Below, in pieces: positions 1-63,150 of a stretch of 63,150 nt of DNA; the first letter of the stretch is position 1; every line of letters starts with the position of its first letter. Under the pieces are notes generated by a model. It searched no databases, was not told the DNA's origin, and was given only the letters and a program-made list of their open reading frames with translations. The DNA is taken from contig JBFLXS010000001.1 of NCBI GenBank assembly GCA_040755795.1, forward strand, positions 1-63,150, written 5' to 3'. A program made the translations under genes and the position numbers. This DNA comes from a bacterium. Lineage in GTDB: Bacteria > UBA9089 > CG2-30-40-21 > SBAY01.

Positions 1-3000
1 CATAAGGTTGGGTATTAATGGTGAATGTGGTTGAGAAACTGCCGTAGGCATCTGTTGAGGTAAAGGTAATACTTGGTGTCGTGCCAAATTTTATACGAAT
101 AGTTTGACTGGCTCCAAATCCATTACCAGTTATGGTTACGATTAACCCTACCGTTCCTTCTGTTGGTGTAATTCCTGTAATAGCAGGCTCTATTCCGAAA
201 GTAATATAAGCCGGATAATTCGAGTTCAATCCTGTTGCCTTAATCGTTGTCGTCCCATACTTCTGGGTATCGATAGTAAAGGTAAGCGTAATTGACCCTG
301 ATTCTGCGGCAGTAACTGTATTAATGGTCAGGGTAGTCCCAAAATCTATTTGCACTAATTCACTACTTAAATAACCATTTCCATAGAGAGTAACTATCGT
401 GCCAACAGTTCCCGAGGTGGGAGTAATCTGGACTAACTTCGGTGCTATCTTAAACTGCAATGAATACGCCGATGTGCCGGTATTTATTCCCCAGGCGGTA
501 ATAGTAGTCGTCCCAATCCGTTGAACATCTACGGTGAAGGTAGTTGAGAACGACCCACATCCTTCTGAAGTAGTCATAGTAATAGTCTGCGTAGTTCCAA
601 ATTGAATTTGCACTGGCTCATTACCACCAAATCCATTACCTGCTACTGTAACCACACTACCAACTGTTCCTTCAGTTGGGGCAACTAAGATAATATTTGG
701 TCCAATAAAGTAGGTATTGCTTGCCGATACATTTACCTCTTCCACATCAACAGCAACAACCGTTGTCGTTCCATAAGGTTGTGTATCAACTGTAAATGTA
801 GTTGAGAAACTACCTTGTGCATAAGTAGATGTCGTCGTAATTGTCCTATTTGTCCCAAAGAGGATATGAATAGTATGACTTGCACCAAAACCATTACCGC
901 AAACCGTAACAATTGACCCAACATTGCCACCTACTGGTGTAACTACAGTAACACTTGCCTTTATAGTAAATATCTCCGTTGCAGAATTAAGTGGACAGGT
1001 TGCCTTAATTGTTGTAACCCCACTTTGTTGGGTATTAACCGTAAAGGTAACAGTAAATGTTCCGGAGGCATTAGTAGAAGCGGTAGTAATTGACCTGGTT
1101 GTTCCAAAATCAATCCGCACTGTTGAAGCGGAGCCAAAGCCATCACCTTCTAATATTACTATTGTTCCCACTATGCCTTGTTTTGGTGTTGATGTATAGA
1201 TTTTTGCCATAACATAGAAGACGTTAGATGCTCGTTTTTCAAGTTCAAATGGATCAAGCTGTTCTGTATTCCATGCAGTAAATGTAGTTGTGCCTGCTGG
1301 CTGTTGAACATTGAAATTATAGACTAAACTAAATGTCCCTGCCTGACTGGCATAGATACCACCATAAGGAGGATTTAGATTAAGAATATCTCCATCCTCA
1401 TCTTGGACTGTCCCAAAGTCAACATAAATTCCTTGACTTGCCGCATAACCTGTCCCAAAGAGTGTAATTTGTGTGCCTACAGTACCCGTCGTTGGGGACA
1501 CCCAAACTAACTCTGGAATTATCTTAAACCAATCATCTACCCCACCTAAATCATCATCCTCAACCCCGGAGGCAATATCTACTGCAGTAATCGTCGTTGT
1601 GCCATAAGATTGCGTATCAACTGTCCATGTAATATAAAATTCACCCTTATTATTAGCAGATGTAGTCGTAATCGTTGGTGTCCAACCAAATCCAATTTGC
1701 ACCAATCCACTACCGGTATAACCATTACCAGAAACAGTAACGATAGTCCCAACCGTGCCTTTAGTTGGACTAATATTCACAATATGCGGTAATATGCGTA
1801 AGATATCTGTTGCTTGCTCACGAGCAGTAGGTTCTTTTGGACCTATACCTGTAGCCGTCGTTGTGCCAAAGACCTGAATATCAATGGTAAATGTCTTTGT
1901 CCATGTCCCGGATGCATTAGTCGTGGCAATAGTAATGGTCGGATTATTACCAAAGGCAATACGGATATCGGCATTTTGTGTGTAGCCTCTACCTTCAATC
2001 GTAATTGTTGTGCCTACAGTCGCAGATTTAGGTGTAAGTGTGGTAATTACCGGTAAGATGAAGAAGTAGTTTCGTGCCCATTGCTCTGTGGTCATACCAA
2101 TAACTTTAATCGTTGTCGTCGCAAACGGCTGAGGTATATCTACTACACTCTGATAGAACCTCGCCGTAAATGTTCCTTGTGGAGAGACTCGCGGAGTATC
2201 TGGTTCAACAATCACAAATCCTGTATTAACAACTAAACCATACTCTGTCCCATAATCAATTTTTAGATTTTCACCATTTACACCTTCTCTACCAAAACCT
2301 GTTCCTTTAATAGTAATTATCGTGCCTATAGTTCCTGTAGTTGGACTAACTAAAGTAATTTCTGGAATTAGCACAAAGTATCTATCCTGGTCAGGTCCCT
2401 TCTGCCAGTATTCTCCCCATTTATCTACTTCCTGCGTATTAAGTCCTGTAGCCACAATCGTCTTGGTACCAAAGTATTGGGTATTGACGGTAAAGGTAAT
2501 AGCAAAAGTCCCGGTATCATTAGTTGAAACTGCGGTGATAGTCAAGGTTGTGCCTAAATCTATCTGCACTACCTCATTAGCACCATAACCATCACCTTGA
2601 ATGAGTATGAAATCACCCACCTGTGCTTTCCATCTATCTGGCACATCAAAGTGTAGCACTTCTGATTGCCGACTAACTAAGGTAATATGGGAATTTATCT
2701 TGAATAAGTCATCATCACGATGATTATCCAGATCAAATAAATCAGCCGCAATGATGGTATGTGTCCCGGCAGGCTGTGTATTTACTGTAAAGGTAACACT
2801 AAATGTTCCACAGGCATTGGTTGATACCACCGTAATAGTAGTCGTATTACCAAAAGTTACCCGCACTGTAGCCGTTGCCGCATAACCATCACCGGCTATG
2901 GTAACAATTGTCCCTACTGATTGTGCCCTTGGCGTTACCATCCAGATATGTGAAATTATCTTGAAGCAATCTACATCCCTATATTCTTCTGTATCAAATT

Positions 3001-4000
3001 GCCAATATTGCATCCCTCCTGGTATTTCACGAAATGCCTTAATCGTTATGATACCATAAGGTTGTGAATTAATCGTAAAGGTAATAGCAAATGTCCCATT
3101 ATAATTTGCTGTTTGCTGTATTATCATCCATGTTGTTCCAAATTCTATCGTTACAGTCCCTTGACGATGATAACCATTACCATAGACCATAATTGGCAAC
3201 CCTACTGTGCCGCTCGTAGCAGTCACATAAACAATGTTATGCGTAATCTTGAAATCTGTATGATATTGAGTCTGGGTAGTTTCCCCAACTGCATTAACCG
3301 TATGTGTGCCATAGCATTGTTCATCAACTGTCCATTGTGTCACAAAACTACCATTACCTGCGGCACTAACATTAGTAATACTCATATTTGTTCCAAACTC
3401 AATACGGATAAGTTCACTACCACCATAACCTGTTCCTTTAACCTCTACTGGAGTCCCAACGGTTCCTGTAAGAGGTGTAATCGTAATTCCTGAGGTAATC
3501 CTGAAGTAATCATAATCATCTGTAATCTGGCCTGTGGCTGTAATAGTAGTTGTCCCCACAGGTTGAGTATCAACCTCAAATTTTGCACTAAAGGTGCCAT
3601 TAGGTCCTACCGTGACAGTAGTAATACTTATGTGTGTTCCAAAATCAATCTGCACAATTTCATTTACCACATAACCACTTCCTGTAATAGTAACCATAGT
3701 CCCTATTTGCCCTGCAGGAGGAGTAACACTTATAATCTCTGCTTTTATAAAGAAAATATTAAATGCCTCTTGGTTGGACATACCTACAAGTGTTCCTCTA
3801 CTTTTTACTGTAGTAGTTCCTGCTGGCTGGGTATTAATAGTGAATATATAAGTAAACTGTCCAATACCATTACATGTAGTTATTATATTAAATTCAGCTG
3901 TAGTTCCAAACTTAATTTTTAGTTCATCCCCTGCATCATAACCATCACCATAAATAGTCACCCAACTTCCTACTGTCCCTTCTGTCGGTGAAACGGTATG
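1..4000 (-). repeat. Super-repeat A, copy 1 (the clearly alignable part of a 5,610-nt, 21-domain unit).
   Basis: It aligns colinearly with 5611-9610. For example, gatgtatagatttttgccataacatagaaga occurs at 1191 and 6801 (offset 5,610). The antisense landmark PVVG at 2343 matches 7953 (offset 5,610). 3167 matches 8771 (offset 5,604, a 6-nt in-frame indel). By eye about 80% nucleotide identity, fading beyond about 4000/9600. Confidence 0.8.
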
Positions 4001-19000: not shown

Positions 19001-22000
19001 CGTAATACGGAAGGTAACTGTAGCTACCTGTTGCCATGTAAATATACCCACCGCAGTAATCGTTGTTGTCCCTAAACTTTGAGTATCAATGGTAAATGTA
19101 GTGGTAAATGACCCATAGGCTTCAGTTGAAATAATGGTAATAGTCTTTGTATTGCCAAAGTGGATGTGTATCCCTTCAGTTGCCCCAAAACCATTACCGC
19201 TAACCGTAACTATACTTCCTACCGTCCCGGATAGTGGGGTAACCAATATAATATTTGGTTTAATGGTAAAGCTATTTGTCGCACTTACTAACTCACCATC
19301 TATCGTCTCAAAAGCAGTAATAGTTGTAGTTCCGTAAGGTTGTGTAGTAATAGTAAAGGTGGTAGTGAAGGAACCGTAGGCAGTTGTAGATACTGTTCTC
19401 AGATTAAGTGTTGTGCCAAAATCAAGTTGCACCGTAGTAGCACTTCCGTAACCATTACCCCTAACCGTAACAATTGTCCCTACTGTTCCCTCTGTAGGTG
19501 TAACCGCAAAGATAGCCGGCAGTATCTTGAATACCTTAGTTGCTACTTCTGGCAATCTACCCCGACCGGTAATTGTAGTTGTCCCAAACCGTTGTGTATT
19601 AATGGTAAAGATAACCGTAAAGCTACCACTTATATTCGCTGATACCTGAACAATGGTAGGTGTAGTGCCAAATGTTATGCTCACCGTTTCAGAAGATGAG
19701 AATCCGGTTGCTTTTATCGTAACAACTGTTCCCACTGTGCCTGAAGTAGGTGTTAATAACCAAATTTCAGGCAGAATATAGAAAGTACTTGTTGCCCTAT
19801 TGCCATATCCCTGTCCATATTCAATTGCTACGATAGTCGTAGTTCCTGCTGGTTGCGTATCAATAGTAAAACTCCGTGTGAATGTTCCATTAATCGTAGT
19901 CGTTGTTGTAGGGGCATTAGTTTCATCGGTCATAGTCGTGCCAAAGGTAACAAATATATTTGTAGTTGCCAGGAATCCATCACCAAGGACCGTTATCAGT
20001 GTTCCCACTGTTCCTCTGGTGGGAGTTACTAAGCAAATATTGGGTAATATGGTAAATGTCTGTGTTCCTATCTGATTATTAGATAATGTTCCTGTGCCTA
20101 CGATTAATTTACCATCTCTTGTCTGGGCATTAACTGTAAACACACCGGTCAATGTCCCCCTTAATTCACCTGCGGTTATGGTTGCAATATTTTGAGTGCT
20201 ACCAAAACTTATTTGAACCTTATCATTTTTAGCATAACCATTGCCATAAAGTGTAACAATAGTCCCTACCGTTCCTTGAGTAGGTGAAACTTGATATAAT
20301 TTAGCCACGATACAGAAGGTATTGGTAGCCGCACGATGTTCTGTTGGAGCATTCTGTCCCACCACCACAATAGTCGGAGTCCCATAAGCCTGGGTATCTA
20401 CCGTAAATGTAGTATCAAATGAACCATTCCCTGAAGAAGTAGTCCAGCCAATACTCGTATACATACCAAATTCTATCTTAATTAGTTCACTGGCACCATA
20501 ACCATTCCCTTTCACTGTTACTTGTGAACCAACTGTCCCAGAAGTAGGTTGTATTTCAGTAATATTTGAAATAATATTAAATGTCCCAAAGGCTGAATCT
20601 GAAATAGGCGGAGTCCAAACGGTAATAGTTGTTATTCCATACGGTTGAGCATCAATCTTAAATACAGATGTAAATGTCCCCTCTCCAGTAGTATCTACTC
20701 CACTTTCTATAGAAATAGTTCTGTGATTACCAAAGTCAATCTGTATCCCCATTATAGGTCCATATCCTGTCCCACTTACTGTTACCGAAATTCCCACTGT
20801 CCCAAAGGGAGGTGAAACAAGTATAATATTAGGCATAATCTTAAACTTACCCACATCTTGTCGCTGAGTTCTTATACCATATACTCTGACCGTATGAGTG
20901 CCATAATATTGAGTATTTACTGTCCAGGTAGTTGAAAATGTTCCGTTTTCACTGGTAGTTACCTGTGTAATAGTAGAGGTATCTCCAAAATCAATCTGTA
21001 TTAATTCACTGCCACCATATCCATCACCTGTCACAGTAACTAAACTACCCACTGTCCCAAATGTAGGAGTAACTGAAGTAATATGGACATCTATACGGAA
21101 TTCCCAATTATCCTTCACAGAACTATGTCCTGATGAATCTATGGCAGTAATACTCTTTGTCCCAAAAACCTGAGTATCCACTGTCCAGGTAGTAGAGAAA
21201 CTCCCTTCTGCATAGGTTGAGGTAGTAGTTATTGTTTGATTAGCACCAAAGATAATACGAACTAATCCTGTAGATTCATAACCATTACCTCTAATAGTAA
21301 CAATAGAACCTACTGTCCCACAAAGTGGAGTAACATTAGTTACATTGGCTAATATAGTAAAGGTTCCATAAGAATTATTCTCACCAAGATCAGGCGTATA
21401 TCCATCTTTATGTCCTACTGCTTGAATAGTCGTTATTCCATACGGCTGGGTATTAATCTGAAAATCAAACATAAAGCTACCTGAAGAAGTAGTAGTAGTT
21501 CCAGGAGGAATATTTAATGTCTTGCCAAAATAAATGTAAATGTTAGAAAGAGGAGAATAATAACCATTACCATATACGGTTACCAAACTACCCACTGTCC
21601 CTTGAGCAGGTGTAACTAAAGTAAGTTTATGGGTTATCTTAAATGATGTATCTGTAGCAGTGGCATTAGATAGCACTCCTACGACTAAAATAGTGGTTAT
21701 ACCCCAGGGTTGTGTATCTACAGTAAATGTAGTCGTCCATGAACCGGCTGACTCGGCACTAATGATAGTAATTGTCGGATTTGTTCCAAAGGCTATCCGA
21801 ATTAATTCTGATGCCTGGTAACCAATACCTCTTATCGTTACCATTGACCCAACTGTCCCTTCTTTTGGTGTAACTAAAACAATACTTGTCTTGACATAGA
21901 AAGATGCGATGGCAAAGGTAATCCTATCAGTAGCCGTAATCGTATTAGAACCATAAGGTTGTGTATCTACTGTAAAGATGCAGGTAAATGTTCCCAGACT

Positions 22001-25000
22001 ACTACTACTTACGGTCATAATAGTCTTAGTTGTTCCAAAATCTATCTGAATCAATTCTGATGCACTAAAACCATTACCAGTAATAGTAACTCCTGTACCT
22101 ATTGTTCCATCCGATGGATATACTGAAGTAATTTTACCAATAATACCAAATATATTTTCTGCTAATTGTGTAGCTTCAGATATTGATTGAACAGTAATAG
22201 TAGTAGTCCCTGCTGATTGGGTTAAAATAGTAAATACAGCACTAAATGTACCTGCAAGAGAAGGATTGTCCTTATAAATTACAATTCTATTATAGGTAGG
22301 CTCAAAACCAGGCAATGCCGCTGATATTGGAATTGTCCGCAGGTTACCAAAATGAATAACTAATTTATTATCTGCCGTAGCTAAAGGATTACTCTTTCTA
22401 TATCCATCACCCCAAATAGTAACCACACTTCCAATCGTCCCTGATGTAGGGCTTACCTGCCATATTCTTGGAATTATGCAGAAGGTTTGAGTATGTGCCG
22501 CCCCTGACATATCCGAAGTAATAATAATATGTTGCGTCCCAAAAAGTTGAGTATCTGCTGTAAAGGTAACTGAAAAACTACCGCAGGCATCTGTTGAAGT
22601 CTGACTAATAGTAGAAGTTGTTCCAAATTTTATATAAATACCTTCAGTTTGTGCAAAACCGTTACCCGTAATGGTAATCAAAGTACTCACTATGCCACTG
22701 GTAGGTGTAGAAAGTGTAATATCTGATTTAATAAAGAATGTAGAAGTCGCTATTTTACCGCTATTCAAACCAGTGACAACAATAGTCGTTGCACCATAGG
22801 GTTGAGTATCAATACTAAAGGTAGTTGAAAATGACCCGGAGGGAGTCGTCGTAGCATACGATACCGTCTGCGTGGTACCAAACTTAATATGTATCTGTTC
22901 GGTAATTCCAAATCCTGTCCCAATTATAGTAACTTTTGTATTTACAGTCCCGGTATCAGGTGTAACTAAATGAATATTAGGTAAGAGATTATAAGTGCCT
23001 GTATTTTCTACTACTGAACAACTCAAATCTTGTGCCTTAATCGTCTTAATACCATAAGGTTGGGTATTAACCGTAAAGGTAGTGCTAAATGAACCTTGTG
23101 CCGCAGAGGTAATGGTAGTAATAGAAGGAGTTGTCCCAAAATGAATATAGATAAGGTGTGTCGCCCCAAACCCATTCCCGGCTACGGTAACAATACTACC
23201 TACTGTCCCGGAAGTTGGAGTAATCGAGAAGATATTTGGTTGGATAACAAATATCCTTTCTTCTGCAGAGATATTCGATTTAATATCCGTAGCCTTAACA
23301 GTCGTGCTACCATAAGGTTGAGTATTAATAGTAAAGGTTGTAGTAAATGACCCGGTGAAAGATGCACTCGCAGTAGTAATAGTATTTGTAGTTCCAAACT
23401 TTATTCGCACCCGCTCATTAGCAGTAAATCCAGAACCTTGTATAGTAACTATTGTCCCTACTGAACCTCTCGTTGGCGTTATATCTACTATATATGGAAT
23501 TATCCTAAAGAATATCGTTTGTGTTCCTACTGGAGTAGATGCGATAGCAAGGATAGTTGCAGTTCCTAACGGCTGTGTATCTACGGTAAAGGTAATGGTG
23601 AAACTACCTAATATATCTGTTGAGGTAAGAACTATACTGGGAGTCGTCCCAAAATCAATCTGAATATTCTTTGTTGCCTCATAACCATCACCATATAATG
23701 TTACTACCATCCCTACAGAACCTTCAGTAGGTGTAACCCAGGTATGTGGTTTAATGACGAATTTCTCTTCGGCAAAGATAAGAGTTTGACTGGCTATTAC
23801 ACTTATAGTTCCATAAGGTTGAGTTTCTAACTTATGTATCTGGTCCGCCGGAAAACTACCATCAGAATTCATTAAAAATGCATCAGCATAATAAGAAGTT
23901 ATACCTAAAACAATCCAACTTACTTGACCACCACCAAATCCATTACCATTTACAGTAATCATCCTTCCAATTGTTCCTTCAGTTGGCGTAACTAAGAATA
24001 GATGTGGCAGGATACCAAAGCTACTTGTAGCCTCGATATTTGAATCTGTTGTATCCCTGGCAGTAATAGTAAATGTCCCAAACGGCTGAATCGGTGCTGT
24101 AAATGTCGTTGAGAATGAACCATAAGCAGTCACCGAATTTGTTCCTAACTCTATAGTTTGTGGATTATTGTTTATACTCACCCCTGCCCAGGTTATCTGC
24201 ACATAACTCCCTGTCCCAAAGCCATTACCCGCAACAGTAACTATCGTCCCTACCGTCCCTTGTGCTGGAGTTACTTGATAGATATTGGGCAGAATAGTAA
24301 ATGGCCTTGATGTTGAGATAGGATTGCCCTGATATGCTGTCACTGTCGTTGTCCCGTAAGGTTGGGTATCTACGGTAAATGTGGTTGAGAAACTACCTTC
24401 GGCATAGGTTGAGGTCAGGGTCAAAGTCGGTGTTGTGCCAAAGATAATGCGGATGGATTGACTTGCACCATAGCCATTACCAGCAATAGTAACGATACTC
24501 CCTACTGTGCCTGATGTTGGTGTCAATGCAATAATCGTCTGCAATATCCTCACTGTCAGGTTATCTGCCACCCCTTGTGAACTACAACCTGTTGCCCGGA
24601 CAGTTGTCGTGCCGTACGGTTGCGTATCAATCGTAAATGTCGTGGTAAAGCTACCTTGAGAATCAGCCGAAACCGTAGTAATACTTATCGTCCTACCAAA
24701 ATCAACCCTGACTAATTCATTTTCTTTGTAACCAATACCGCGTAAAGTAACAATTGTGCCTACCGTCCCTTCGCTGGGCGTAACTGAGTCTAACTGCGGG
24801 CTAATGACAAAGTAGGTTTGTGTAGCGGCTTGCGTCTGCATACCAACCGCTAAGACAGTCGTTGTCCCCAGTGGTTGAGTATTTACCGTGAATGTGGTTG
24901 AGAACGACCCAAAGGCAGTTGAAGTAACTTTTGTAATCGTCCTGGTAGTGCCAAATAGTATATGTATTGACTCACTTGCCCCGTAGCCATTACCAGAAAC

Positions 25001-28000
25001 CGTAACAATCCGCCCTATTGTTCCACTCATTGGGATGGGAGCAAATATCTGCGGCAATATCTTAAATGTCCTGGTAGCAGAGTCTAATCTGCCATATCCG
25101 GTAATCGTGGTAGTACCGTAAGGTTGGGTATTGATAGTAAATCTTGTGCTGAAACTACCATTGACATTGGCGGAAACCTGAGTAATAGTTGGTGTTGTGC
25201 CAAATGCTATCCTCACCGTCTCAGATGATGAATATCCGGTTGCCTCAATAGTGATTATCGTGCCTACCGTTCCCTGAAGTGGACTTACAAACCAGATTTG
25301 AGGTAGGATGTAGAAGGTACTTGTTGCCCTCCCACCAAGACCTGTAGGATATTCAATCGCTACTATAGTCCTCGTCCCTGCGGGTTGAGTATCAACAGTA
25401 AAGTATTTTGTAAATTCCCCTGAAATGGTAGTCGTCCCGCGTAGATCTATGTCGTCATAACTTGTTCTACTTGTTCCAAAGGTAACATAAATCTCTACTG
25501 ATGCTCTATATCCATTGCCTTGAATAGTTATTCTTGTCCCAACCGTTCCAGTATTAGGTGATACTGAATAGACATTAGGTAAAATCCTGAATGTTTGTGT
25601 TCCTATCTGATGAGATATAGTTCCTGTCCCAACCACTAATTTATCATCAGGCACATCTCTTGGTTGTGTATTAACCGTAAATACACCTGTTAATGTCCCT
25701 GTTAATCCATTTGCAGTTAAAGTAGCAATATTTTGAGTGCTACCAAAACTTATCTGAACTGGCTCAGCTTTAGCATAACCATTCCCATAAAGTGTAACCT
25801 TAGTTCCTACCGTCCCTGCAGTAGGTGAAATTTGATATAATTTGGCGGTGATACAGAAATCGGTGGTATTAGTGGCACGATGTTCTGCTGGAAGATTAGT
25901 GCCTATAGCAACAATAGTAGTTGAACCATACGCCTGTGTATCAACAGTAAATGTCCCTACAAATGAACCATCTGCCAAAGATGTTATTACCCCAATACTC
26001 GTATGCATACCAAATTGTATTGTAATTGGTTCAGTCGCACCATAACCATCTCCTTTAACTGTTACTTGTGACCCAACTGTCCCATAATTAGGAGTAACCT
26101 CTCTAATTCTTGAGGTAATGGCAAAAGTCCCTATAGATGATACAGGATTATTAACACCTCTTGCTGTTATTGTAGTGATTCCATAAGGTTGAGTGGTAAT
26201 GACAAAGGTAAGAGTAAAACTACCCTTATTATCTGTATTCGGGTCAAAAGGTTCTGTAACTACTGTTCTTTGTGTCCCAAAATCAATCTTTATTCTCTCT
26301 AAACCGTCAGGATAACCATTACCTTTTACTGTTATGGTAGTCCCGACTGTGCCTTTTTGAGGACTAATGTAGATAATATTAGGCATAATCTTAAACTCAT
26401 CTGTATCTTCCCGCTGTTTATTTATGCCATACGCCCTAACCGTATGAGTTCCATAATGTTGAGTATCTACTGTCCATGTAATTGAAAATGTCCCTCTGCC
26501 ACTGGTACTTATTTGAGTAATAGTCGCGGTACTTCCAAAATCAATCTGAATTAATTCACTTCCACCATATCCATCACCGGTTACAGTAACCAAACTTCCA
26601 ACTGTCCCTGATTTAGGAGTAACTAAAGTAATATGAACATCTATTCTATATGTCCCCTCTACCTCTGCATGATGTCCTGATGTATCTACCGCAGTTATTG
26701 TCTTGGTACCAAAACTCTGTGTATCTACGGTAAATGTAGTTGCGAAACTACCCATAGGACTTGCAGTTATAGTTGTAATAGTCAAATTATTCCCAAATTC
26801 TATTCTTACACTCTGACTTGCTCCAAATCCCTCACCTGTAATAGTAACAAAAGAACCTACTGTACCGAATAATGGCGTAAGGCTACTTATATTAGCTAAT
26901 ATAGTAAATGTCCCATAAGAATTTGGTCCTATTAAATGACCCAAAACATCATTTTTACCACGAGCCTGAACAGTAATTATCCCATAAGGTTGAGTATCAA
27001 CAGTAAAGGTAATGGCAAATGTCCCCATTCCATTAGAATTACCTGTAACAATTGGAGATGAGTCAGAATCTTTATTCCCAAAACCAATCCGCATATCACA
27101 GGTCGGATAATAACCATTACCAAACACCGTTACCCGACTCCCTACTGTTCCAGAAAGAGGTGAAACAATAGTAAGTTTATGAGTTATCGTAAATGTAGCT
27201 GTAGCAGTGGCATTAGAATTCATCCCCACAGCAAGAATAGTAGTATTACCATACGGTTGAGTATCTATGGTAAAGGTAGTAGTGAAACTCCCTTCTGCTA
27301 CTGCACTAACAGTAGTAATAGTATTATTATTACCAAAGGCTATCCGAATTAATTCTGATGCCTGATACCCTACGCCTCGAATAGTAACAATAGTTCCCAC
27401 AGTTCCTGTCTGTGGTGAAGGAGCTGTAATACTTGTCTTAATATAGAAAGAAGCCGTAGCAGAGGCAATTCTACCTTGAGCAATAATAGTAGTTGCACCT
27501 ACCGGTTGAGTATCTACTGTAAAGGTACAACTAAATGTCCCAACATTACTACTACTTACTGTGGCTATAGTCCTGGTTGTCCCAAAATCTATCCTGATTA
27601 ACTCTGAGGCACTAAATCCATCACCCGTAACTGTTACTACCCAACCTACAGTTCCATCTTGAGGATTAACAAAGGTAATATTACCCGTAATAACAAATAT
27701 ATTTTCGCTATATTCCTTCTCTGCCCTGTATGATTGCACAGCAACCGTAGTTGTGCCTGCTGGTTGAGGTGAAGTAATGGTAAAGATAGCAGTAAATGTT
27801 CCAGAATCAGATGGATTTATCATCCCAGACACCAATCCCAGCGGTTCTGCCGCAGAAATGGTAATTGTTCTAATTGTTCCAAAATGAATGACTAAATAAT
27901 TCGGATTCGGCCAAACTTGCTTACTATATCCATCTCCTCGTATAGTTACTACCGTACCTATACTTCCCCAGGTAGGACTTACATAATGTATTCGCGGTAA

Positions 28001-31000
28001 CACCATAAACTTTCTTGTAAATGATTGACTAAAGGTTAATCCTTTAATCGTAATGGTATGTGTGCCATAAATCTGGGTATCAACACTAAAGGTAAGTGTC
28101 CATGACCCACAAGTCTCTGCTGAAACCTGTGCAATAGTTGTCGTCCTGCCAAAATCTATAGAGATTGTCTCAGATGTCCCAAAACCATTACCTCGTATAG
28201 TTATACAGGTATTTTCTATTACCCCAGTAGTGGGTGTAAGTAAAATAATATCAGGCTCAATAAAGAATGTAGAAGTCGCTACTTTACCACTACTCAAACC
28301 ACCTGCCACAATAGTTGTTGCACCATAAGGTTGAGTATCAATGGTAAAGGTAGTCGTCCATGACCCGGAGATAGTTGTCGTAGCATACGATACCGTCTGC
28401 GTGGTACCAAACTTAATATGTATCTGTTCGGTAATTCCAAATCCTGTCCCAATTATAGTCACCCTTGTATTAACACTGCCATTATCAGGTGTAACTGAAT
28501 GAATATTAGGTAAAAGATTATAAGTACCTGTATTTTCTACTACTGAACAACTCAAATCTTGTGCCTTAATCGTCTTAATACCATAGGGTTGTGTATTAAC
28601 CGTAAAGGTAGTGCTAAATGAACCCTGTGCCGCAGAGGTAATGGTAGTAATAGAAGGAGTGTTCCCAAAATGAATATAGATAAGGTGTGTCGCCCCAAAC
28701 CCATTCCCGGCTACAGTAACAATACTACCTACTGTCCCTGAAGTCGGTGTAATTGAGAAAATAGCTGGTTGGATAACAAATATCTTTACCTCTGCAGAGG
28801 TATTCGATTTAATATCCGTAGCCCTCACCGTCGTGCTACCATAAGGTTGAGTATTAACAGTAAAGGTTGTCGTAAATGACCCTATGGAAGATGCACTCAC
28901 AGTAGTTATAGTATTGGTATTCCCAAAACTTATCCTGACTTTTTCATTGGCAGTAAATCCAGAACCTGTAATAGTAATTACACTGCCTACTGTGCCAAAG
29001 GAAGGAGTAACTTCCACTATCTGAGGTATGATATCAAAGAACGCAGTAGTTGTCCCTGCCTCTAAATCTATTGCCAGAATAGTAACGCTTCCTAATGGTT
29101 GAGTATCCACGGTAAAACTAATAGTAAAACTACCATAATCATTAGTAGTAGCAAGAGTTATACTCTGAGTTGTCCCAAAATCAATCTGAATACTCCTTGT
29201 TGCCCTATAACCATTACCAAATACCGTCACCTGACTACCTACTGTCCCTGATAAAGGATTCACACCTGTAATATTTGGTAGAATAGAGAATGTACTGGTA
29301 GCATATAAACCAGTCGTCTGGGTTGCCATTACAGTTACAGTCCCATAAGGTTGACTCCTTATATTATTACTCCAAACATTTTGGAAACTGCCGTCTGATT
29401 GCATCGCAACTCCTTCCGTTACAGGATTATACAAGACAATTCCAATCTTAACATTAGCAGAATAATTACCATCAAATCCATTCCCATTGATACTAATAGT
29501 TGTTCCGATTGTCCCTCTTGTTGGAGTAACTAAGAATAGATATGGGAAGATAGTAAAGCTCCGGGTAGCACAAACACCTGAAATACTGGTATCTGTTGCC
29601 ATAACGATGTGACTTCCCCGTACTTGAACGGGTGCGGTAAAGGTAGTGGAGAATGAGCCAAAGGGACTAACAGGAGTTGTAGTGCGGTAGATTGTGCCAA
29701 AGTCTATATTGACACCAATACTTCCTGTCCCAAACCCATTACCTGCAATAGTAATTACTGTCCCAACAGAACCCTGATTAGGTGTTAATTCAATAAGATT
29801 AGGCAAAATAGTAAATGTTGCCTCTCGTGAAATAGGATTACCTTGATAAGCAATAACCGTCGTTAGACCGTAAGGTTGGGTATTAACAGTAAATGTGGTT
29901 GAGAATGACCCATTGGCATAAGTTGAAGTAGTATGCAATGTAGGTGTTGTGCCAAAGATAATGCGGATTGATTGTGTCGCACCATAACCATTACCCACTA
30001 TGGTAACTATAGAACCAACTGTGCCTGATGTAGGTGTAAATAAAACAATGTTTGGTAATATCCTGATACTCAGGTTATCTGCCCAAAGACCTGAGGCAAT
30101 CCCTCTGGCCTTAATCGTGGTTGTCCCATAAGGTTGAGTATCAATGGTAAATGTCGTCGTCCAACTACCATCAATCGTAGCAGATACCGTAGTAATCGTT
30201 CGCGTCGTTCCAAAATCTATCTGCACTAATTCTGATGCCTGATACCCAACTCCGCGCAAGGTGACGACGGTCCCTACCGTTCCTTCACTTGGAGTGATTG
30301 AGTCAAGTTGTGGTTTAATCACAAATAAGTTAGAGGCAGATGCCCCTGTTCTTGTGCCTACCGCAACAATCGTTGTTGTCCCCAAAGATTGCGTATCTAC
30401 TGTCCATGTAGTTGAGAACGACCCAAAAGCAGTAGAAAGTGTCCGGGTAATAGTGGGTGTTGTCCCAAATTGAATACAAATCCACTCGGTTGCTCCATAA
30501 CCATTACCATAAACAGCTACTACCTGACCTACTGTCCCGGATGCAAGCACAGGTTCAAAGACCTGCGGCAGTATCTTGAATGTATTAGTCGCTGGCTCTA
30601 ATTTGCCATAACCGGTAATCGTAGTAGAACCATACGGTTGTGTATCAACAGTAAATGTAACCGTAAATGTTCCATCAGCATAGGTTGAGACAGTAGTAAT
30701 GGTTCTTGTCGTCCCAAAATCTATCCTGACCGACTCTGTGCCACCAAACCCATCTGCCTTAATGGTTACTACTGTCCCTACTGTTCCTGAAGTTGGACTA
30801 ACAGAATAAATATGTGACAGGATATAGAATGTTGTTTCCTTCTCATTCACCTCACCATCTTCCTCGGCAATAATAGTTGTAGTTCCTTGCGGTTGACTAT
30901 CCACTGTATAATTATAGACAAAATTACCACTTAAAGTAGTAACAGTAGCCTTATCTCCACCTGCTATCCGTTTCGTACCAAAAGATATCAATATATTGAC

Positions 31001-58000: not shown

Positions 58001-61000
58001 CGTAGTAATAGTCATTGTATTACCAAAATCTATCTGGATTAACTCTGTAGGCCCATAATTAACACCTTCCACTGTTATAACTGTTCCTACTGTACCGGTA
58101 GAAGGTGTAACCAGACTAATAGCCCTTACCTTCCACATAGTAATAGTGCCCAGTGTCTGGGTAGTTGAACCTAATATTCCTGTCCCCATTACAGTTGCAG
58201 TTCCGGTAATATAACCAGTCCTTGTTCCTGTCAAGGAAATAGTGGCATTATTTTTAGCCGGGTCAACCGGGATATAAACACAACCTGTCCCTGCATTTAT
58301 TGGCGTAGGAGTTCTCCAGCTACTACTTCCATAGACATCGGTTAAATTAGTCGATGTCGCTATAGTTACTCCGACATCATTCATCAAATTCCCAAATTCA
58401 TCAACTACCTTCACCTTTAAGACAAACTTTAAGCCATCACCATTGCTGGCTAAAAATGAAGGTATGGTTTGTGTGCCACCGGTAGCCGTGCCAACCTGAC
58501 TGCTTGTTCCCGTAACATAACCCTTCTTTGAGTATTGTGCCTGGAAACCTGTCCCTGTTCCAACCGCAATATACCAGGATGAGGTTGATGTTCCCCAAAC
58601 AGGTTGTTTAATATAAGATACCTCTGTAGTTGACCCTGGGATGAGTAATTTCACCGACTCGGTGCCAGTCGAAGGACCTTGTAATGTCAAAGTGCCACCT
58701 AACTCATCCTGCACCGTAGCTATTTTTACCGCATATTTCAAACTACCATCCGGCCCCATAAATTTAGGTCGCATCTGTAAAGTCTTGCTGGCAGTTACCG
58801 AAGCGGTTGACATAGTGATGACATAGCCATCTTTCCAGTACTGCCCCCAAACCGTGCCAGTAGCGGCGATGTACCAACTTCCACCACTGAATGTTTGTGT
58901 GCCACCATCGAGATAAGTAACCTCTTGTGTGCCCGTTGATGTCCCAAACAACCTCACCGTATCCGTCGCCGCAGGGGTTAAAGTATAACCCAACTCATCC
59001 ATCACATCACCACTGGAGACCTTAAAGGCAAAGAGAAGTTTTGGATTATGGGAAGTAGCATCAAAAGAATTTAAGGGACTATCAAAAGCAAGAGTTCTTT
59101 GATCAGCGCCACTACTTTGAGAAAACGTAAGGGTAGTAAGAGTTCCTACATATCCCTCTTTATCAATCCTTATCCTCCCACTCATGTCCGGAGTAATCGC
59201 TATATACCCCATTTGATTGGTAATAGTAGAGGTAATTATACTAAATGATCCTGTAGAACTGAAAGTTGTATTAGTTGAAGATAAAGCCAATGTGCCATTT
59301 AACTCATTAAGTGCACCAACAATCTTTAAATTAAATTGTAGACCTTTTATATTAGATGTTCCTAATTCAGAAATGAGAGTACTTCTGGCTGGATAATCAC
59401 CCATATTAATTATTATTTGGCCGGTAGAGGTAGCTATAATTCCATTAGATTCCTGCAATCCCACATTTGTATTTTCTGCATATACCCAACCTGAACGTCG
59501 TATGGACAATGTCCCCCTATCTTGAGTATCTTTCCAATACAATATATTTTGGACACTACCCGTATAGGTTTTTGTAGCCGGAATAGCTTCTCTAAATCTA
59601 CATGTAGTCAAAGAACTATAATCCACATTTTGCCCTAATTCATCTCTAACAACTACTTTTAATCCATATTTTAGCCCAGGTCCATCAAATCTGGCATTAA
59701 ATTTATCTGGCAAGCCTTCATCATAATCCACCGTACTCTGTGTTCCCGCAGATGGAGTTAAAGTAGCACCTGTTGTTACAAATCCTTTCACTGTAATATT
59801 TAATGTCCCATAAACAGTAGTTGTTGCCGCTACATAACCTATATTATTTTCAATCGTCCATGTCCCAATAACAAATCCACCTGATGCAGATATAAATGCC
59901 GCATCAGTAGGATTTATTAATCCTGCTAATGTTTCAGTTCCACCTAATTCATCCGTTACTCCAATTACCTTAATATTAAATTCTAATCCTTTAATGGTAT
60001 AAGTTGCCATTCGTGGAGTAAGAGAAGAAGTAGCAAGGGTAGAAGTTGCTACCATATCTATACAGACTTGATTAGCAGTACCAGTAGTTATACTTCCTAA
60101 CCCAAAATGGGTACAGGTAGCATTAACATATCCTGCCTTTTCAATGGTTAGAGTACTACCTGTTCCATTTGTATCTGCCCAATACAATGTAGTTCCCGTA
60201 TAAGTAGCCGGATTATAACCTCTAAATGTTGCCTTCCCTAAATTGAGATAATCAAAACTTGAAGTCCCGCCCAACTCATTACGCACTGTCACCTTTAATC
60301 CAAATTTCATTCTCGGTGCAATTTTCATCGCGGTAGGAAATTCTGTAGCAGTCCCAAATACTATAGTTGTCTGAGTCGCACCTGTAAGAGTTATAGTCGC
60401 ACTTGTATCTACATATCCAGTCTGTCGCACCGTTAAAGTCCCCGCTGGAGTAGTAAAACTTCCAGCCAAATACCAGATATTATCCTTAACTGTCTGCGTA
60501 GCAATTATAAAGCCTTCTGGAGTAAAAGGCAAACTGCTCGTCAAAGTCATTGTCCTGACTAACTCATCTGTTACTCCTAAAACTTTGATATTAAATTCTA
60601 AACCTTTAACCGTATATGTCGCTCTTGGTGGTGTTGTCTCTTCCTGCGTAATACCAAGAGGAGAAACAGTCCCTGTAGTATCCATCTTAATTACAATCTG
60701 GGTTTTAGAACCTGTCTCAATAAATCTCAATCCTCCATGCGTAACAGTTGCATATACATATCCTGTTTTATAAATATTTAATTCACCAATCCCATAAGTA
60801 TCCGCCCAATAATATGTTGTATCTGTTACTGTTGCTGGAGGTTGACCATCAAATAATTTAGTCGTCAAACTCTCACTCCCAAATCCCAATTTATTCCCTA
60901 ATTCATCTGCTACTATTACTTTCAAACCAAATGGTAAACAGGAAGCTACATAACTTGCTCCAATTGAAGGGAAAGGTGATGTATATTCTACACTCCTTAT

Positions 61001-63150
61001 CTCGTTATCTAATGGTGTAACACCTTTCTTTGAAATACTTATATAACCCTGTTTTGTTATAGTAAGAGTCCCTTGTTGACTTGTGGGGCTGCCGGCTATA
61101 TATCCTATATTGTTCCTTATTACTTGAGATACTATAGAAAAACCATCAGAAGAAGTAAATTCAGTATTATCTAACCCTAAACTATTTCCTAATTCATCTT
61201 TTGCTCCAATAACCTGTAAATTAAATTTCAATCCTTTAATAGTATAACTACCTCCATCAGAAATAAAGGTAGTTAATGTAGGATAATCTCCCATATCGAT
61301 AACAACCTGTCCATTAATACTGGTGGTAATACTCCCTAAGCCACTATTAATCACTTCAACAGGTATCCACCCTGTCCTCTGAACAGACAAAGTTCCCCCT
61401 ACACCATTAGTATCTGCCCAATATAATACATTATTTACTGATGTAGTAGTCGCACTTCCTCTAAAAGTTGCTTTTGTTAAACTTCCCAAATTATATCCAC
61501 TACTACTACCAAATTCATCTCTTACCACTACTTTCAATCCAAATGGTAATCCGGAGCCACTATAGTCTGCACCCCAACCAATGGATGGAGAAGAGTAAAA
61601 ATCAACCATTTTTTGTATGCTCCCTCCTACTTCTATATTACTTTTTGTTCTCTTCGTATATCCTGGAAGACTAACAGTAAGCGTACCGGTTGTAGTAGGA
61701 CTGGCTGCCATATATACTTTCCCGTCACAAATTGTTGATGTTGCTATGGTAAATACATCAGGTTCAAGTGTTATATCCGAAGTTATAGTTAAAGTATTAC
61801 CCAATTCATCAGTTATTCCTAATAGTTTTAAATTAAATGGTAGTCCCGTTGCAGTAAATGTCCCTCCTCCACTTGGGTTTGTAGTAAGAGCCGTTGTCCC
61901 TTTCAAAATTATTATCGTCTGAGTACCGTCGGTAGTTGAAACATCAAATAACCCGGAATCCGAATTAGAATCTACCTTTATATATCCTGTTTTAGTAGCT
62001 GCTAATTGTTTATTTGAAAGTGTAGTAATATAATAATGTTCATTACCTTCTATCCCTTGATTTGGGTAATTTGGAACCCCTCCATAATATAATACTGTAA
62101 CTCCCCTTAAGGGGTTCCCTAACTCATCATAAGTTATTACCTTCAATCTAAACTCCAACCCTTTAATCGCATAAATCCCTGCTGTAGAAATTGAACCTGT
62201 TCTAATCGTCTTTGTCGCATTATCACCACCTAAATCTATCACAATCTGACCTGATGATGTTCCGGTAATCCCACCGGCGGTAGTAATGTCTAATCCTGGA
62301 TGTGTCTTATTGGCATATATGTATCCTGATTTAAGGATAGACAAGGTTGCCGCTGTCCCCATCGTATCCGCCCAGTATAATGTTCGTGTTCCACCAGTAT
62401 CAGTATAAGTACCTGGATCTCTATTTCTAAATTTAGTGGTTAATCCCGTCGTCAACCCATTCCCCAACTCATCCCGCACTATCACCTTCAAGGCAAATAA
62501 AATGCCGGTAAAATCTACTGGAGTCTGCGATGAACTACTATAGGTAGCCGGCCCCGAAGTCGTCCTTACATAACCATCCACAACTAAACTCATTGTTCCT
62601 TGACCACTCGCCGCAACATAAATATACCCACCATCATATCTCCGCTCAACTTCACTTAAACCAGGTCCTAATGTAAGAGTTGAAGTAGCATCAGATGTCA
62701 AATACAAAGATATATTCCGTTCATTCGTAGCACTAATTCTAAAAGCCCCTGCTAATGTAACTTCACTTGTCACCGCACTTAATTCATTTCCACTTATCGT
62801 TGGAGCGGTCGTACTCGTCGGTAAATAACATGATACCGTCACCGTATATACATAGCTACCAGCGGCCATGGCAAAACTATACTTCCCACTACCAAGTTCC
62901 TTGAACTCTGTCGGCACATAGTCAACCCCTGCCTTCCTAAAAACAAACTTATCTCCAGGTAATCCTGTCGTCCCTACTCCATCCATCTTGCTGACCGTGA
63001 TGATTAAATTACCCTGTAATCTTACTTCACTTGTCACCGCACTTAATTCATTTCCACTTATCGTTGGAGCGGTCGTACTCGTCGGTAAATAACATGATAC
63101 CGTCACCGTATATACATAGCTACCAGCGGCCATGGCAAAACTATACTTCC
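1..63150 (-). CDS. Internal fragment of one giant ORF, open at both window edges (21,049 complete codons, from 63148 down to 2). It encodes a hyper-repetitive beta-sandwich-domain protein that looks like a surface fibre or adhesin.
   Basis: I translated the reverse complement by hand in the phase with codon first bases = 1 (mod 3). It was open at every stretch checked: 63148-61170 (about 660 codons), 58498-58081, 55258-54990, 50638-50341, 48718-48450, 33019-32960, 32638-32401, 11458-11221, 3058-2941, 790-481 and 60-2. The phase is identical at both edges (63148 and 7 are both 1 mod 3). The ORF track lists 11 minus-strand ORFs, all in phase 0 (mod 3), and none in this phase. Two or more in-frame stops would have produced listed M-to-stop ORFs, so the frame is essentially stop-free and was presumably omitted because it has no terminus in the window. 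The translation is a coherent repeated domain sequence rather than random text. All repeat offsets I measured (5,610, 5,604, 5,529, 5,799, 270, 264, 258 nt) are multiples of 3. Confidence 0.92.
488..709 (-). other. Representative single Ig-like domain of the array.
   Basis: Hand translation: FIGPNIILVAPTEGTVGSVVTVAGNGFGGNEPVQIQFGTTQTITMTTSEGCGSFSTTFTVDVQRIGTTTITAWG. The distance between the equivalent Gln of the preceding ..DTQPYG (781) and of this domain's ..DVQRIG (523) is 258 nt, or 86 codons. Confidence 0.75.
4790..5830 (-). repeat. Cluster of 4 'STYA[EQ]GSF' subtype domains (within super-repeat A, unit 1).
   Basis: The block ..ctaccttc.gcata.gttga.gta.ttt.aat.. repeats at about 4870, 5130, 5390 and 5650. 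Translations include TSTYAEGSFTTTFTIDTQRYGITT and TSTYAQGSFSTTFTIDTQPYGTTT. Confidence 0.6.
5611..9610 (-). repeat. Super-repeat A, copy 2.
   Basis: Same evidence as copy 1. The offset of 5,610 nt equals 1,870 codons, so the reading frame is preserved. Confidence 0.8.
17290..18780 (-). repeat. Cluster of about 6 'STYA[EQ]GS' / related subtype domains.
   Basis: Same subtype signature at about 17350, 17610, 17860 and 18110, with related domains at about 18350 and 18600. The expansion relative to the 4-domain cluster at 4790-5830 helps explain the longer super-repeat unit here. Confidence 0.6.
18501..24299 (-). repeat. Super-repeat B, copy 1 (about 5.8 kb, with one more domain than copy 2).
   Basis: 18801 (acagtggtcg...) aligns with 24600 (acagttgtcg...), offset 5,799. 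22851 (gtagcatacg...) aligns with 28380, offset 5,529. The 270-nt difference equals one 90-codon domain. It is present among the four domains at 18.8-19.8 kb, where copy 2 has three domains at 24.6-25.3 kb. Confidence 0.75.
22730..23400 (-). repeat. High-identity island within super-repeat B (copy 1 side).
   Basis: Over 90% identical by eye to 28259-28929, including an 83-nt perfect match (22848-22930 = 28377-28459). The sequence immediately below 22730/28259 is much more divergent (roughly 60% by eye). Confidence 0.8.
24300..29829 (-). repeat. Super-repeat B, copy 2 (about 5.53 kb, about 20-21 domains).
   Basis: Colinear with copy 1 (see above) and with 29830 onward. The order of domain subtypes is shared, for example the ..LRG[GIV]GY[QK]..EL[VI].[VI]DFG.. 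domain at about 18945, 24743 and 30258. Confidence 0.75.
28259..28929 (-). repeat. High-identity island within super-repeat B (copy 2 side).
   Basis: Partner of 22730-23400 at an offset of 5,529 nt (1,843 codons). Confidence 0.8.
29830..31100 (-). repeat. Super-repeat B, partial and more diverged copy 3.
   Basis: 29830-30850 aligns domain for domain with 24300-25330 (offset about 5,530). Homology is still recognisable in the atypical domain at about 30850-31100 versus 25330-25600, then is lost. Confidence 0.55.
42170..45250 (-). repeat. Run of about 12 consecutive closely related '..TSTYAEGS[FW]TTTFT[IV]DTQ..' subtype Ig-like domains.
   Basis: Adjacent domains share long near-identical stretches. 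44471-44590 versus 44729-44848 (offset 258 nt) have a 57-nt perfect match and 6 mismatches in 120 nt. 42440, 42700 and 42960 carry ggtaaatgtggttgtccatgacccttc[ta]gcataa.t.ga.gttgtctgaat.gtcc at a spacing of about 260 nt. Confidence 0.65.
58127..63148 (-). other. N-proximal block of about 16 tandem beta-sandwich repeats resembling carboxypeptidase-regulatory-like / PEGA (prealbumin-fold) domains.
   Basis: Hand translation gives repeated units such as GLPFGLKVVVRDEFGSSSGYNLGSLTKATFRG...LYWADTNGVGGTLSVQRTGWIPVEV and YTIKGLKFNLQVIGAKDELGNSLG...GTLTITKQGYISISK. The [LI]KV.V.DELGN core occurs 14 times. Its plus-strand complement (..ccYaaYtcatc) lies at about 62459, 62114, 61796, 61508, 61184, 60893, 60554, 60266, 59941, 59630, 59294, 58988, 58695 and 58388, spaced 288-345 nt apart. 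The pattern L.V.V.DE.G..L ... G.Y.[LIV].V...GY is typical of CarboxypepD_reg/PEGA-type domains. Not confirmed by any search. Confidence 0.55.
62760..62886 (-). repeat. Exact 127-nt direct repeat, copy 1.
   Basis: Base-for-base identical to 63024-63150. The offset of 264 nt equals 88 codons. It encodes KYSFAMAAGSYVYTVTVSCYLPTSTTAPTISGNELSAVTSEV. Confidence 0.95.
63024..63150 (-). repeat. Exact 127-nt direct repeat, copy 2 (runs off the window edge).
   Basis: Identical to 62760-62886. The match is cut by the end of the window, so its true extent is unknown. Confidence 0.95.

Follow-up and report, generated by a model that had tools for sequence, protein, structure and literature searches.

Interior of a giant gene encoding at least 221 tandem IPT/TIG-like domains in an uncultivated bacterium presumably related to Candidatus Desantisbacteria

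The 63,150-nucleotide (nt) stretch of DNA analyzed here (contig JBFLXS010000001.1, below called the window) is occupied from edge to edge by one minus-strand open reading frame (ORF) of 21,049 codons at positions 2..63148, which runs off the window on either side. What can be seen of the product comprises at least 236 small β-sandwich domains in a row, 221 of which form an uninterrupted array of IPT/TIG-like domains with an immunoglobulin (Ig) fold. Our reading, to which we give a probability of roughly 0.7, is that the window is the interior of a genuine giant gene from a bacterium related to Candidatus Desantisbacteria, and that the gene encodes a surface fibre or adhesin which is exported by the type IX secretion system (T9SS), anchored at its C-terminus and lengthened by the TIG array acting as an extender. 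Below we give the evidence for the frame, the domain anatomy and the relatives of the protein, and then weigh the reading against its rivals.

It is clear from the six-frame stop count that the frame is unbroken. The open phase corresponds to offset 2 on the reverse complement and descends from 63148 to 2, each codon having its first base at a plus-strand coordinate equal to 1 (mod 3), and 0 stops were counted in 21,049 codons, as the first-pass annotation had claimed after translating the phase at a limited number of places. The remaining five frames contain 866, 866, 1,533, 1,730 and 2,799 stops and no open run longer than 426 nt, and from the stop densities of these frames the chance of 21,049 stop-free codons was computed to be at most 10^-384, in agreement with the earlier argument that such a run lies beyond chance. 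Since the frame is open at each window edge, the start and the stop of the gene both lie outside the 63-kb window, which had also been anticipated. The ORF track that accompanied the sequence lists 11 minus-strand ORFs of at least 60 amino acids (aa), all with an end coordinate equal to 0 (mod 3) and in a phase that differs from the open one, so the observation that no ORF is listed in the open phase matches the track. The absence of the giant ORF is a mechanical artefact, because the lister by design omits ORFs running off either end of their source. The visible product has a mass of 2.22 MDa and an isoelectric point of 5.3, and is composed of 18.8% Thr, 11.5% Gly and 10% Ile, being also rich in Ser and Val. 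No tRNA or Rfam family was found in the 63-kb window, which also contains neither a marker gene nor any gene flanking the ORF. A phage origin was considered and rejected, there being neither a PHROG match nor an IMG/VR match (exact 50-mer in viral contigs).

From aa 1676 to aa 21049 (window 2..58123, minus strand) the product consists of 221 head-to-tail IPT/TIG-like Ig-fold domains, which were identified with a local profile hidden Markov model (HMM), Pfam and AlphaFold and which give substance to the Ig-like repeat build suggested by the first-pass annotation. The local HMM covers the array with 221 domains and leaves no stretch of 30 aa or longer unassigned; the repeat period is 80-111 aa with a mode of 85-86, the final copy is cut by the window edge, and the consensus includes ..VTPxxGTVGTxVTVxGNGYG..IxIxFGT...GSFTxTFTVDTQPYGTTTI.... 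On a 2,000-aa piece of the array (window 51152-57151) the Pfam family TIG (PF01833) scored 149.9 bits against a cut-off of 20.9 (E 2e-44) over seven stretches, two further 1,000-aa pieces gave no match at E 0.01, and among 148 single repeats PF01833 was found at E<=0.01 in 58, with a best value of 5e-8. The array repeat is an IPT/TIG domain, and it belongs to a divergent subfamily because the remaining single repeats stay below the PF01833 threshold.

The fold agrees with this assignment. An AlphaFold2 model of a di-repeat, with 110 di-repeats of the protein as its alignment, reached a pLDDT of 95.5 and a pTM of 0.84 and contains two tandem all-β domains, in which DSSP lists seven and six strands, respectively. 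Foldseek searches with this model returned tandem Ig-like domains (intimin D0-D1, complement MG domains, PECAM, KIR, MET IPT and InvE), and a profile of the repeat compared with the PDB matched the E-set domain of cyclodextrin glucanotransferase (E 0.0017). No transmembrane segment was found in the 21,049 aa; the highest Kyte-Doolittle mean over 19 residues is 1.78, and the few 19-residue stretches above 1.6 are β-strand segments of the repeats. The visible part likewise contains no SecA-like, enzyme or dockerin domain, with no such Pfam or NCBIfam match in the scanned pieces, and there is no room for enzyme or SecA-like domains because the whole of the 21,049 aa is taken up by three repeat classes. 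The lack of a transmembrane-like segment, and of any sequence beyond the three repeat classes, supports an extracellular and non-enzymatic character of the protein.

Identity among the 221 repeats averages 41.6% over all pairs and 43% between neighbours. Self-comparison disclosed two segmental duplications on the minus strand. The first (19517..30565) pairs repeats 106-126 (25052-30565) with repeats 127-147 (19517-25051) at an offset of 21 repeats or 5,529 nt, with about 66% aa identity, a synonymous divergence (dS) of 0.89 and a ratio of nonsynonymous to synonymous divergence (dN/dS) of 0.31; the second (698..9613) pairs repeats 186-197 (6299-9613) with repeats 207-218 (698-4006) at an offset of 21 repeats or 5,610 nt, with about 72% aa identity, dS 0.88 and dN/dS 0.24. 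Beyond these two 21-repeat duplications no periodicity (21-repeat, 7-repeat or other) that would indicate a super-repeat was found in the TIG array. That two independent duplications have an identical 21-repeat offset could reflect a preferred recombination unit or a coincidence.

Altogether, three internal duplicate pairs gave dN/dS values of 0.31, 0.24 and 0.26 at dS values of about 0.9-1.3, and they are therefore old duplicates under purifying selection. Base composition is strongly codon-position specific in the open frame. With these two observations, the confidence of the AlphaFold model and the many homologues described below, it is clear that the frame is true coding sequence and selectively maintained.

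In the direction from N- to C-terminus, which runs from right to left in the window, the TIG array is preceded by an 88-aa unit and by a module which we refer to as the N-module. The 88-aa unit occupies aa 1-134 (window 62747..63148, minus strand), where aa 1-42 recur exactly at aa 89-130; about 1.5 copies lie in the visible part. In Pfam it produced only a sub-threshold match (TIG_plexin, E 0.01). The N-module (aa 135-1675, window 58124..62746, minus strand), delimited with a local iterative HMM, comprises 15 tandem β-rich domains of about 100 aa with the motif GLxFxLKVxVxDELG, in which long copies bearing YWAD alternate with shorter ones. The domain type switches at aa 1675/1676, that is, at window 58123/58124, where a module junction at about 58.1 kb had been noticed in the first-pass annotation.

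Scans of the whole N-module gave no Pfam match above threshold, no NCBIfam match and no PHROG match. When 34 single copies were scanned, 14 from the window and 20 from the archaeal protein P0001 described below, CarboxypepD_reg was matched by 3/34 and Big_1 by 2/34, all weakly; a carboxypeptidase-regulatory-like domain was considered for this module, and with three weak matches we do not assert it. The AlphaFold model of the N-module is all-β with a pLDDT of 74.9 and found no fold match at E<1 when compared by Foldseek with the PDB, and a profile search of an index of 5.8 billion proteins gave no match. The domain is rare, with 168 carriers among 1.84 billion representative proteins and up to 30 copies per protein. 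Ten carriers were looked up, and these include one Aenigmarchaeota protein named "PGF-pre-PGF domain", one Thermoplasmatota protein named "Ig-like domain" and one hypothetical protein of an unclassified bacterium, the other seven having no informative name. P0001 is the only database protein that matches the whole N-module; it comes from a metagenome-assembled genome (MAG) of Candidatus Aenigmarchaeota and begins with a signal peptide and contains the domain 21 times. The occurrence of the N-module in archaeal proteins, as against the bacterial relatives of the TIG array, may be due to cross-domain sharing of a surface-protein module or to mis-binning.

For the TIG array, a search with 1,500 aa as the query returned 145 proteins. 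The best of these are entries named "hypothetical protein, partial" from MAGs of Candidatus Desantisbacteria with 33-43% identity, and each of the top Desantisbacteria matches spans its entire small contig. One Desantisbacteria MAG (locus-tag prefix AAB296) contributes 16 fragments that sum to 19,195 aa, and annotation of public relatives as many such partial pieces fits the earlier statement that gene callers fragment genes of this kind. No homologue longer than about 2,600 aa surfaced, though a 5,854-aa product of the family sits on one of the fetched contigs; very long proteins seem not to be surfaced by the word-indexed protein search, so giant relatives are apparently under-reported by it.

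A scan of the GTDB representative genomes with a consensus tri-repeat of the array gave 23 loci, and reading the contigs around such loci showed that giant TIG-array ORFs recur in public MAG data. In an unclassified "bacterium" MAG, contig JAHIZN010000456.1 (55,768 nt) was read over about 50 kb and is stop-free there. Two contigs of a further unclassified MAG, JASEHA010000001.1 (57,225 nt, read from position 16035 onward) and JASEHA010000002.1 (33,347 nt, nearly all read), are stop-free over the parts read, as are two contigs of about 9.7-9.8 kb, JASEHA010000059.1 and JAHIZN010000457.1. In the local HMM these five contigs are pure TIG arrays over the parts read. Among the Desantisbacteria contigs, JACQYP010000058.1 (GCA_016208205.1, 23.5 kb) shows no interruption other than a 20-N gap in the 15,961 nt that were read, the array on PFIC01000199.1 is broken by a 150-N gap, and JACQYQ010000083.1 carries a single frame change at about 9527-9597, with overlapping gene calls of 3,198 and 1,569 aa. 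An indel introduced during assembly would explain the frame change, as would a genuine frameshift or a pseudogene. Three apparent gene termini (P0006, P0020 and P0041) were rejected as true ends, being internal pieces broken by N-gaps or by the frame change.

In the Desantisbacteria, JAHIZN and JASEHA arrays, as in the window, the divergent TIG repeat is recognizable by the signature ...TFTVDTQPYGTTTI... and recurs about every 86 aa. The relatives are about 36-45% identical to the window protein, and since this is no higher than the identity among the repeats inside the window, we regard them as family members and not as orthologues. No N-module was found among the fetched TIG-array relatives. 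The nearest matches to the window (57%) are two loci, L010 and L023, that are too short for use. TIG-array fragments also occur in MAGs of unrelated taxa, one in Candidatus Woesearchaeota (P0011) and one in the Cyanobacteriota MAG099 (L010; 1,548 nt, 57% identity), and these are most likely mis-binned short repeat contigs. In one of the two unclassified MAGs the arrays are on NODE_1 and NODE_2, by name its two longest contigs, and the pieces of the MAG Yes70-11 are alike in coverage (about 16-25x according to the contig names), so that they may belong to one gene of more than 100 kb.

The C-terminus of the family is visible in two relatives, L009 (JASEHA010000033.1) and L031 (JGI Ga0180007_10002265). 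In both, the TIG array is followed by a module of 1,200-1,770 aa built from different repeats of about 100 aa, then by a T9SS type A sorting domain, and then by the stop codon. The C-terminal module lies at about 1870-7180 in L009 and about 11185-14781 in L031, has related sequences in P0048 and P0059, and has a sub-threshold match to Filamin as its only hit in Pfam; its repeat reads LSWTGExGYxxDGVxPxxG...FxFxVxYxDxDxxxPxxGYPKVxI, and the two modules are 32% identical. The sorting-domain family TIGR04183 (cut-off 23) scored 26.7 bits in L031 and, just under the cut-off, 20.4 bits in L009, and both tails also match the C-terminal domains of PorU, PorZ or M6-like cargo. Directly downstream of the stop of the giant gene, at 7270-8328 in L009 and 14952-15998 in L031, lies a gene of the PorV/PorQ family (NF033709, 141.1 and 134.5 bits against a cut-off of 90). 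The two copies are 48% identical and come from two unrelated samples, and a profile of both compared with the PDB matched PorV (6h3i, E 0.0012). PF18962 T9SS tails also occur in smaller proteins that share the TIG repeat, where they are accompanied by beta-helix, cohesin or dockerin modules. An N-terminus of a giant relative was not recovered among the fetched loci.

These relatives, read together with what is established about type IX secretion and about repeat adhesins, suggest the following mechanism. The protein would be exported through Sec and then through the type IX secretion system, where a sorting domain at the C-terminus, outside the window, would be recognized with the help of an outer-membrane protein of the PorV/PorQ family, and it would then be attached to the cell surface at its C-terminus. 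The TIG array would serve as a passive extender of about 0.9 micrometre (221 domains of about 4 nm each) and would present the N-terminal modules, that is, the 88-aa unit, the N-module and anything upstream of them, far from the cell, where they might bind a surface, a partner cell or a polymer. Judging from the tails of the relatives, we put the T9SS route at somewhat better than even odds, and the role as an adhesin, as opposed to a matrix or sheath, we propose by analogy and with less confidence than the route.

Several points weigh against our reading as a whole. The signal-peptide and sorting-domain ends of this gene are outside the window, so the proposed route is taken over from relatives with no more than about 36-45% identity, and the role of extender and adhesin is proposed by analogy. 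The named relatives of the N-module include archaeal proteins, and no relative with an N-module beside a TIG array was found in searches of proteins, genome contigs, metagenome contigs and the 5.8-billion-protein index. Scans of genome and metagenome contigs with an N-module peptide, and of viral contigs with an exact 50-mer, did not recover the contig of the window either, so the proposed kinship with Desantisbacteria is tentative.

The alternative that survives best, and which we still consider unlikely, is that the protein is part of a structural matrix, sheath or coat resembling a surface layer (S-layer), or a tether between the cells of a consortium, and not a fibre with an adhesive distal tip. 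A single domain type makes up over 90% of the visible protein, in which no ligand-binding or enzymatic module is recognizable. Archaeal carriers of the N-module have a signal peptide or a PGF-pre-PGF domain, and archaeal proteins of the PGF-pre-PGF type usually form surface coats. It is also possible that several arrays exist per genome in the relatives, NODE_1, 2, 33 and 59 of Yes70-11 being an example. On the other hand, a single chain that is held at one end and comprises about 236 domains has the geometry of an extender-adhesin, unlike the lattice-forming S-layers, and no self-assembly or lattice domain was identified.

A chimeric, collapsed or expanded assembly of shorter repeat genes or strains is less probable still, and the sequence around the right edge of the window is what speaks for it. 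The longest exact repeat in the window is a direct repeat of 127 nt, found by exact-repeat search and by direct reading of the sequence, in which 62760-62886 equals 63024-63150 at an offset of 264 nt or 88 codons, and the second copy (63024..63150) stops exactly at the right edge of the window, a feature on which the first-pass annotation had not remarked. The usual maximum k of SPAdes-type assemblers is 127. Because the terminal repeat measures exactly this length, the right edge is probably a contig end produced by a k=127 de Bruijn graph that broke inside a near-identical tandem repeat, where the assembled copy number may differ from the true one. The relatives in short-read MAGs, moreover, are badly fragmented, with N-gaps and one frame change. 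Away from the edge the picture is different, in that the internal repeats have diverged to about 60-75% identity at the DNA level and 41.6% at the protein level, Tandem Repeats Finder detected almost no DNA tandem in the window, and the longest internal exact match is 83 nt, below usual read lengths and k-mers, all of which makes a collapsed or shuffled assembly unlikely. A random chimera, for its part, would rarely hold one frame over 21,049 codons with perfect domain register along 63 kb, and independent assemblies of other organisms yield pure TIG contigs of 33-57 kb that are stop-free over the parts read.

Two further alternatives appear very improbable, and about equally so. One is that the protein is a giant adhesin of the RTX type exported by a type I secretion system (T1SS) in the manner of LapA, SiiE or MpIBP, with its N-terminus held in an outer-membrane channel and a ligand-binding C-terminus. 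The logic of construction is the same, since those proteins also have a long tandem Ig-like extender with repeats of about 85-105 aa flanked by different modules. Against this, the two visible C-termini of relatives are T9SS type A sorting domains without RTX nonapeptide repeats and have a PorV/PorQ gene next to them, and RTX, VWA or T1SS-related families were not matched in any scanned part.

The other is that the gene is that of an archaeal giant surface protein of DPANN type. This would account for P0001, the sole match to the whole N-module, with its Aenigmarchaeota origin, signal peptide and 21 copies, as well as for the further N-module carriers in Aenigmarchaeota (PGF-pre-PGF) and Thermoplasmatota and for the TIG-array fragment in a "Woesearchaeota" MAG. 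Against it stand the close matches to the TIG array, which are overwhelmingly bacterial (Desantisbacteria), and the visible C-termini of the family, which are bacterial T9SS sorting domains beside PorV/PorQ genes, and short all-repeat contigs such as the Woesearchaeota one are easily mis-binned.

Finally, a membrane-embedded multi-domain protein for predation or episymbiosis, as in the Omnitrophota to which the first-pass annotation had pointed as an analogy, shares the size class of the window protein and the habit of being fragmented or missed by gene callers, but has next to no chance of being correct, since three repeat classes, for the most part a pure TIG array, fill 21,049 aa that lack transmembrane-like segments and SecA-like, enzymatic or dockerin domains, the best homologues are in Desantisbacteria and unclassified MAGs with none named Omnitrophota, and the top copy number of a single domain is about 41 there versus 221 here.

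Returning to the surface fibre of a Desantisbacteria-related bacterium as our preferred reading, a bolder version of it may be considered, which we regard as speculative and rather doubtful. The complete gene would have more than 30,000 codons, the product would be the largest T9SS protein known and would contain the longest single-family array of Ig domains known from any organism, and micrometre-long fibres would be formed in a candidate phylum, either Desantisbacteria or a neighbour. In the same tentative version NODE_1 (57 kb), NODE_2 (33 kb), NODE_59 (9.7 kb) and NODE_33 of Yes70-11, the last of these with 7.2 kb of array and C-terminal module, would be one gene of about 107 kb. If this is true, giant genes exist in a candidate phylum where such genes are undescribed, and with more than 221 TIG domains the array would be on the scale of titin.

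Giant genes and megadalton adhesins made of Ig repeats are each known as a kind. What is new here is that one TIG-type domain occurs more than 220 times in succession, that the lineage resembles Desantisbacteria and is outside the phyla highlighted for giant genes, and that the family has a conserved T9SS ending, which would make its members by far the largest T9SS cargoes. If the link to type IX secretion is true, the T9SS translocon would have to export at least 2.2 MDa in at least 236 domains, a size that to our knowledge exceeds that of every known cargo several-fold, and how the translocon manages this is a testable question. The conserved pairing of a giant cargo with a PorV-like protein in two unrelated samples merits a study of its own.

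The findings extend giant genes beyond the Omnitrophota, and in the portions of the searched literature that were available to us we found no description of this combination of lineage and architecture, nor, in those portions that deal with Desantisbacteria or with giant genes, of giant TIG-array genes. Dozens of entries named "hypothetical protein, partial" that belong to Desantisbacteria or to unclassified MAGs are apparently broken pieces of genes like this one, and the completeness and gene-content estimates of those MAGs would be distorted as a result. The array also constitutes a natural experiment, in which hundreds of neighbouring homologous domains remain about 42% identical under purifying selection.

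As for the comparison with known systems, predicted giant proteins of 85,804 and 147,155 aa have been reported (10.1101/2023.11.21.568195; 10.64898/2026.06.07.730766), so size alone is no longer very surprising, and the first-pass annotation overstated the case when it placed the present product among the largest predicted proteins. The giants of the Omnitrophota are rich in transmembrane segments and often multi-enzyme, with at most about 41 copies of any Pfam domain, and one class of giants, the "tandem-repeat scaffold", has DNA-level tandems that were dissolved through divergence (10.1101/2023.11.21.568195; 10.64898/2026.06.07.730766). They often have a divergent SecA DEAD-like helicase domain, and the "giant" class is set at 30,000 aa or more (10.1101/2023.11.21.568195). 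The window protein is like the Omnitrophota giants in being a very long single ORF from an uncultivated bacterium, hidden by fragmented assembly and by gene callers. It is unlike them in that its visible part of at least 21,049 aa has no transmembrane segments or enzymes and has 221 copies of one domain, and in that its relatives belong to another lineage. In the public arrays related to the window a C-terminal module and a T9SS tail are visible (L009 and L031), and any counterpart in the window gene would lie outside the window.

Outside the bacteria, titin is a protein of about 34-38 thousand aa in eukaryotic muscle. Like the window protein it has hundreds of tandem Ig-fold domains in one polypeptide with a moderate identity between neighbours (about 43% in the window protein), and unlike it titin is of unrelated origin and intracellular, and mixes I-set Ig, Fn3 and kinase domains, and its gene is divided into many exons.

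MpIBP of Marinomonas primoryensis, SiiE of Salmonella and LapA of Pseudomonas are megadalton surface proteins in which Ig-like repeats of about 90-105 aa form a rigid extender that projects terminal binding modules, and the window protein with its 221 Ig-fold domains resembles them in this tandem Ig-like extender. They are exported by T1SS through C-terminal RTX signals with the N-terminus held, and their repeats are of the BIg type and, in MpIBP, nearly identical. The repeats in the window, in contrast, are of the TIG type and about 42% identical, and the relatives of the window protein end in T9SS sorting domains, which would give it a polarity opposite to that of the T1SS adhesins, with anchoring at the C-terminus.

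SprB of Flavobacterium johnsoniae, a repetitive surface filament of about 6,500 aa, has a T9SS C-terminal sorting domain and partners of the PorV family. The visible window protein alone is more than three times longer than SprB, its host lies outside the Bacteroidota, and no gliding-motility context is known for it. The likeness is in the ending, since in the family of the window protein, as its relatives show, the protein closes with a type A sorting domain and a PorV/PorQ gene lies next to its own.

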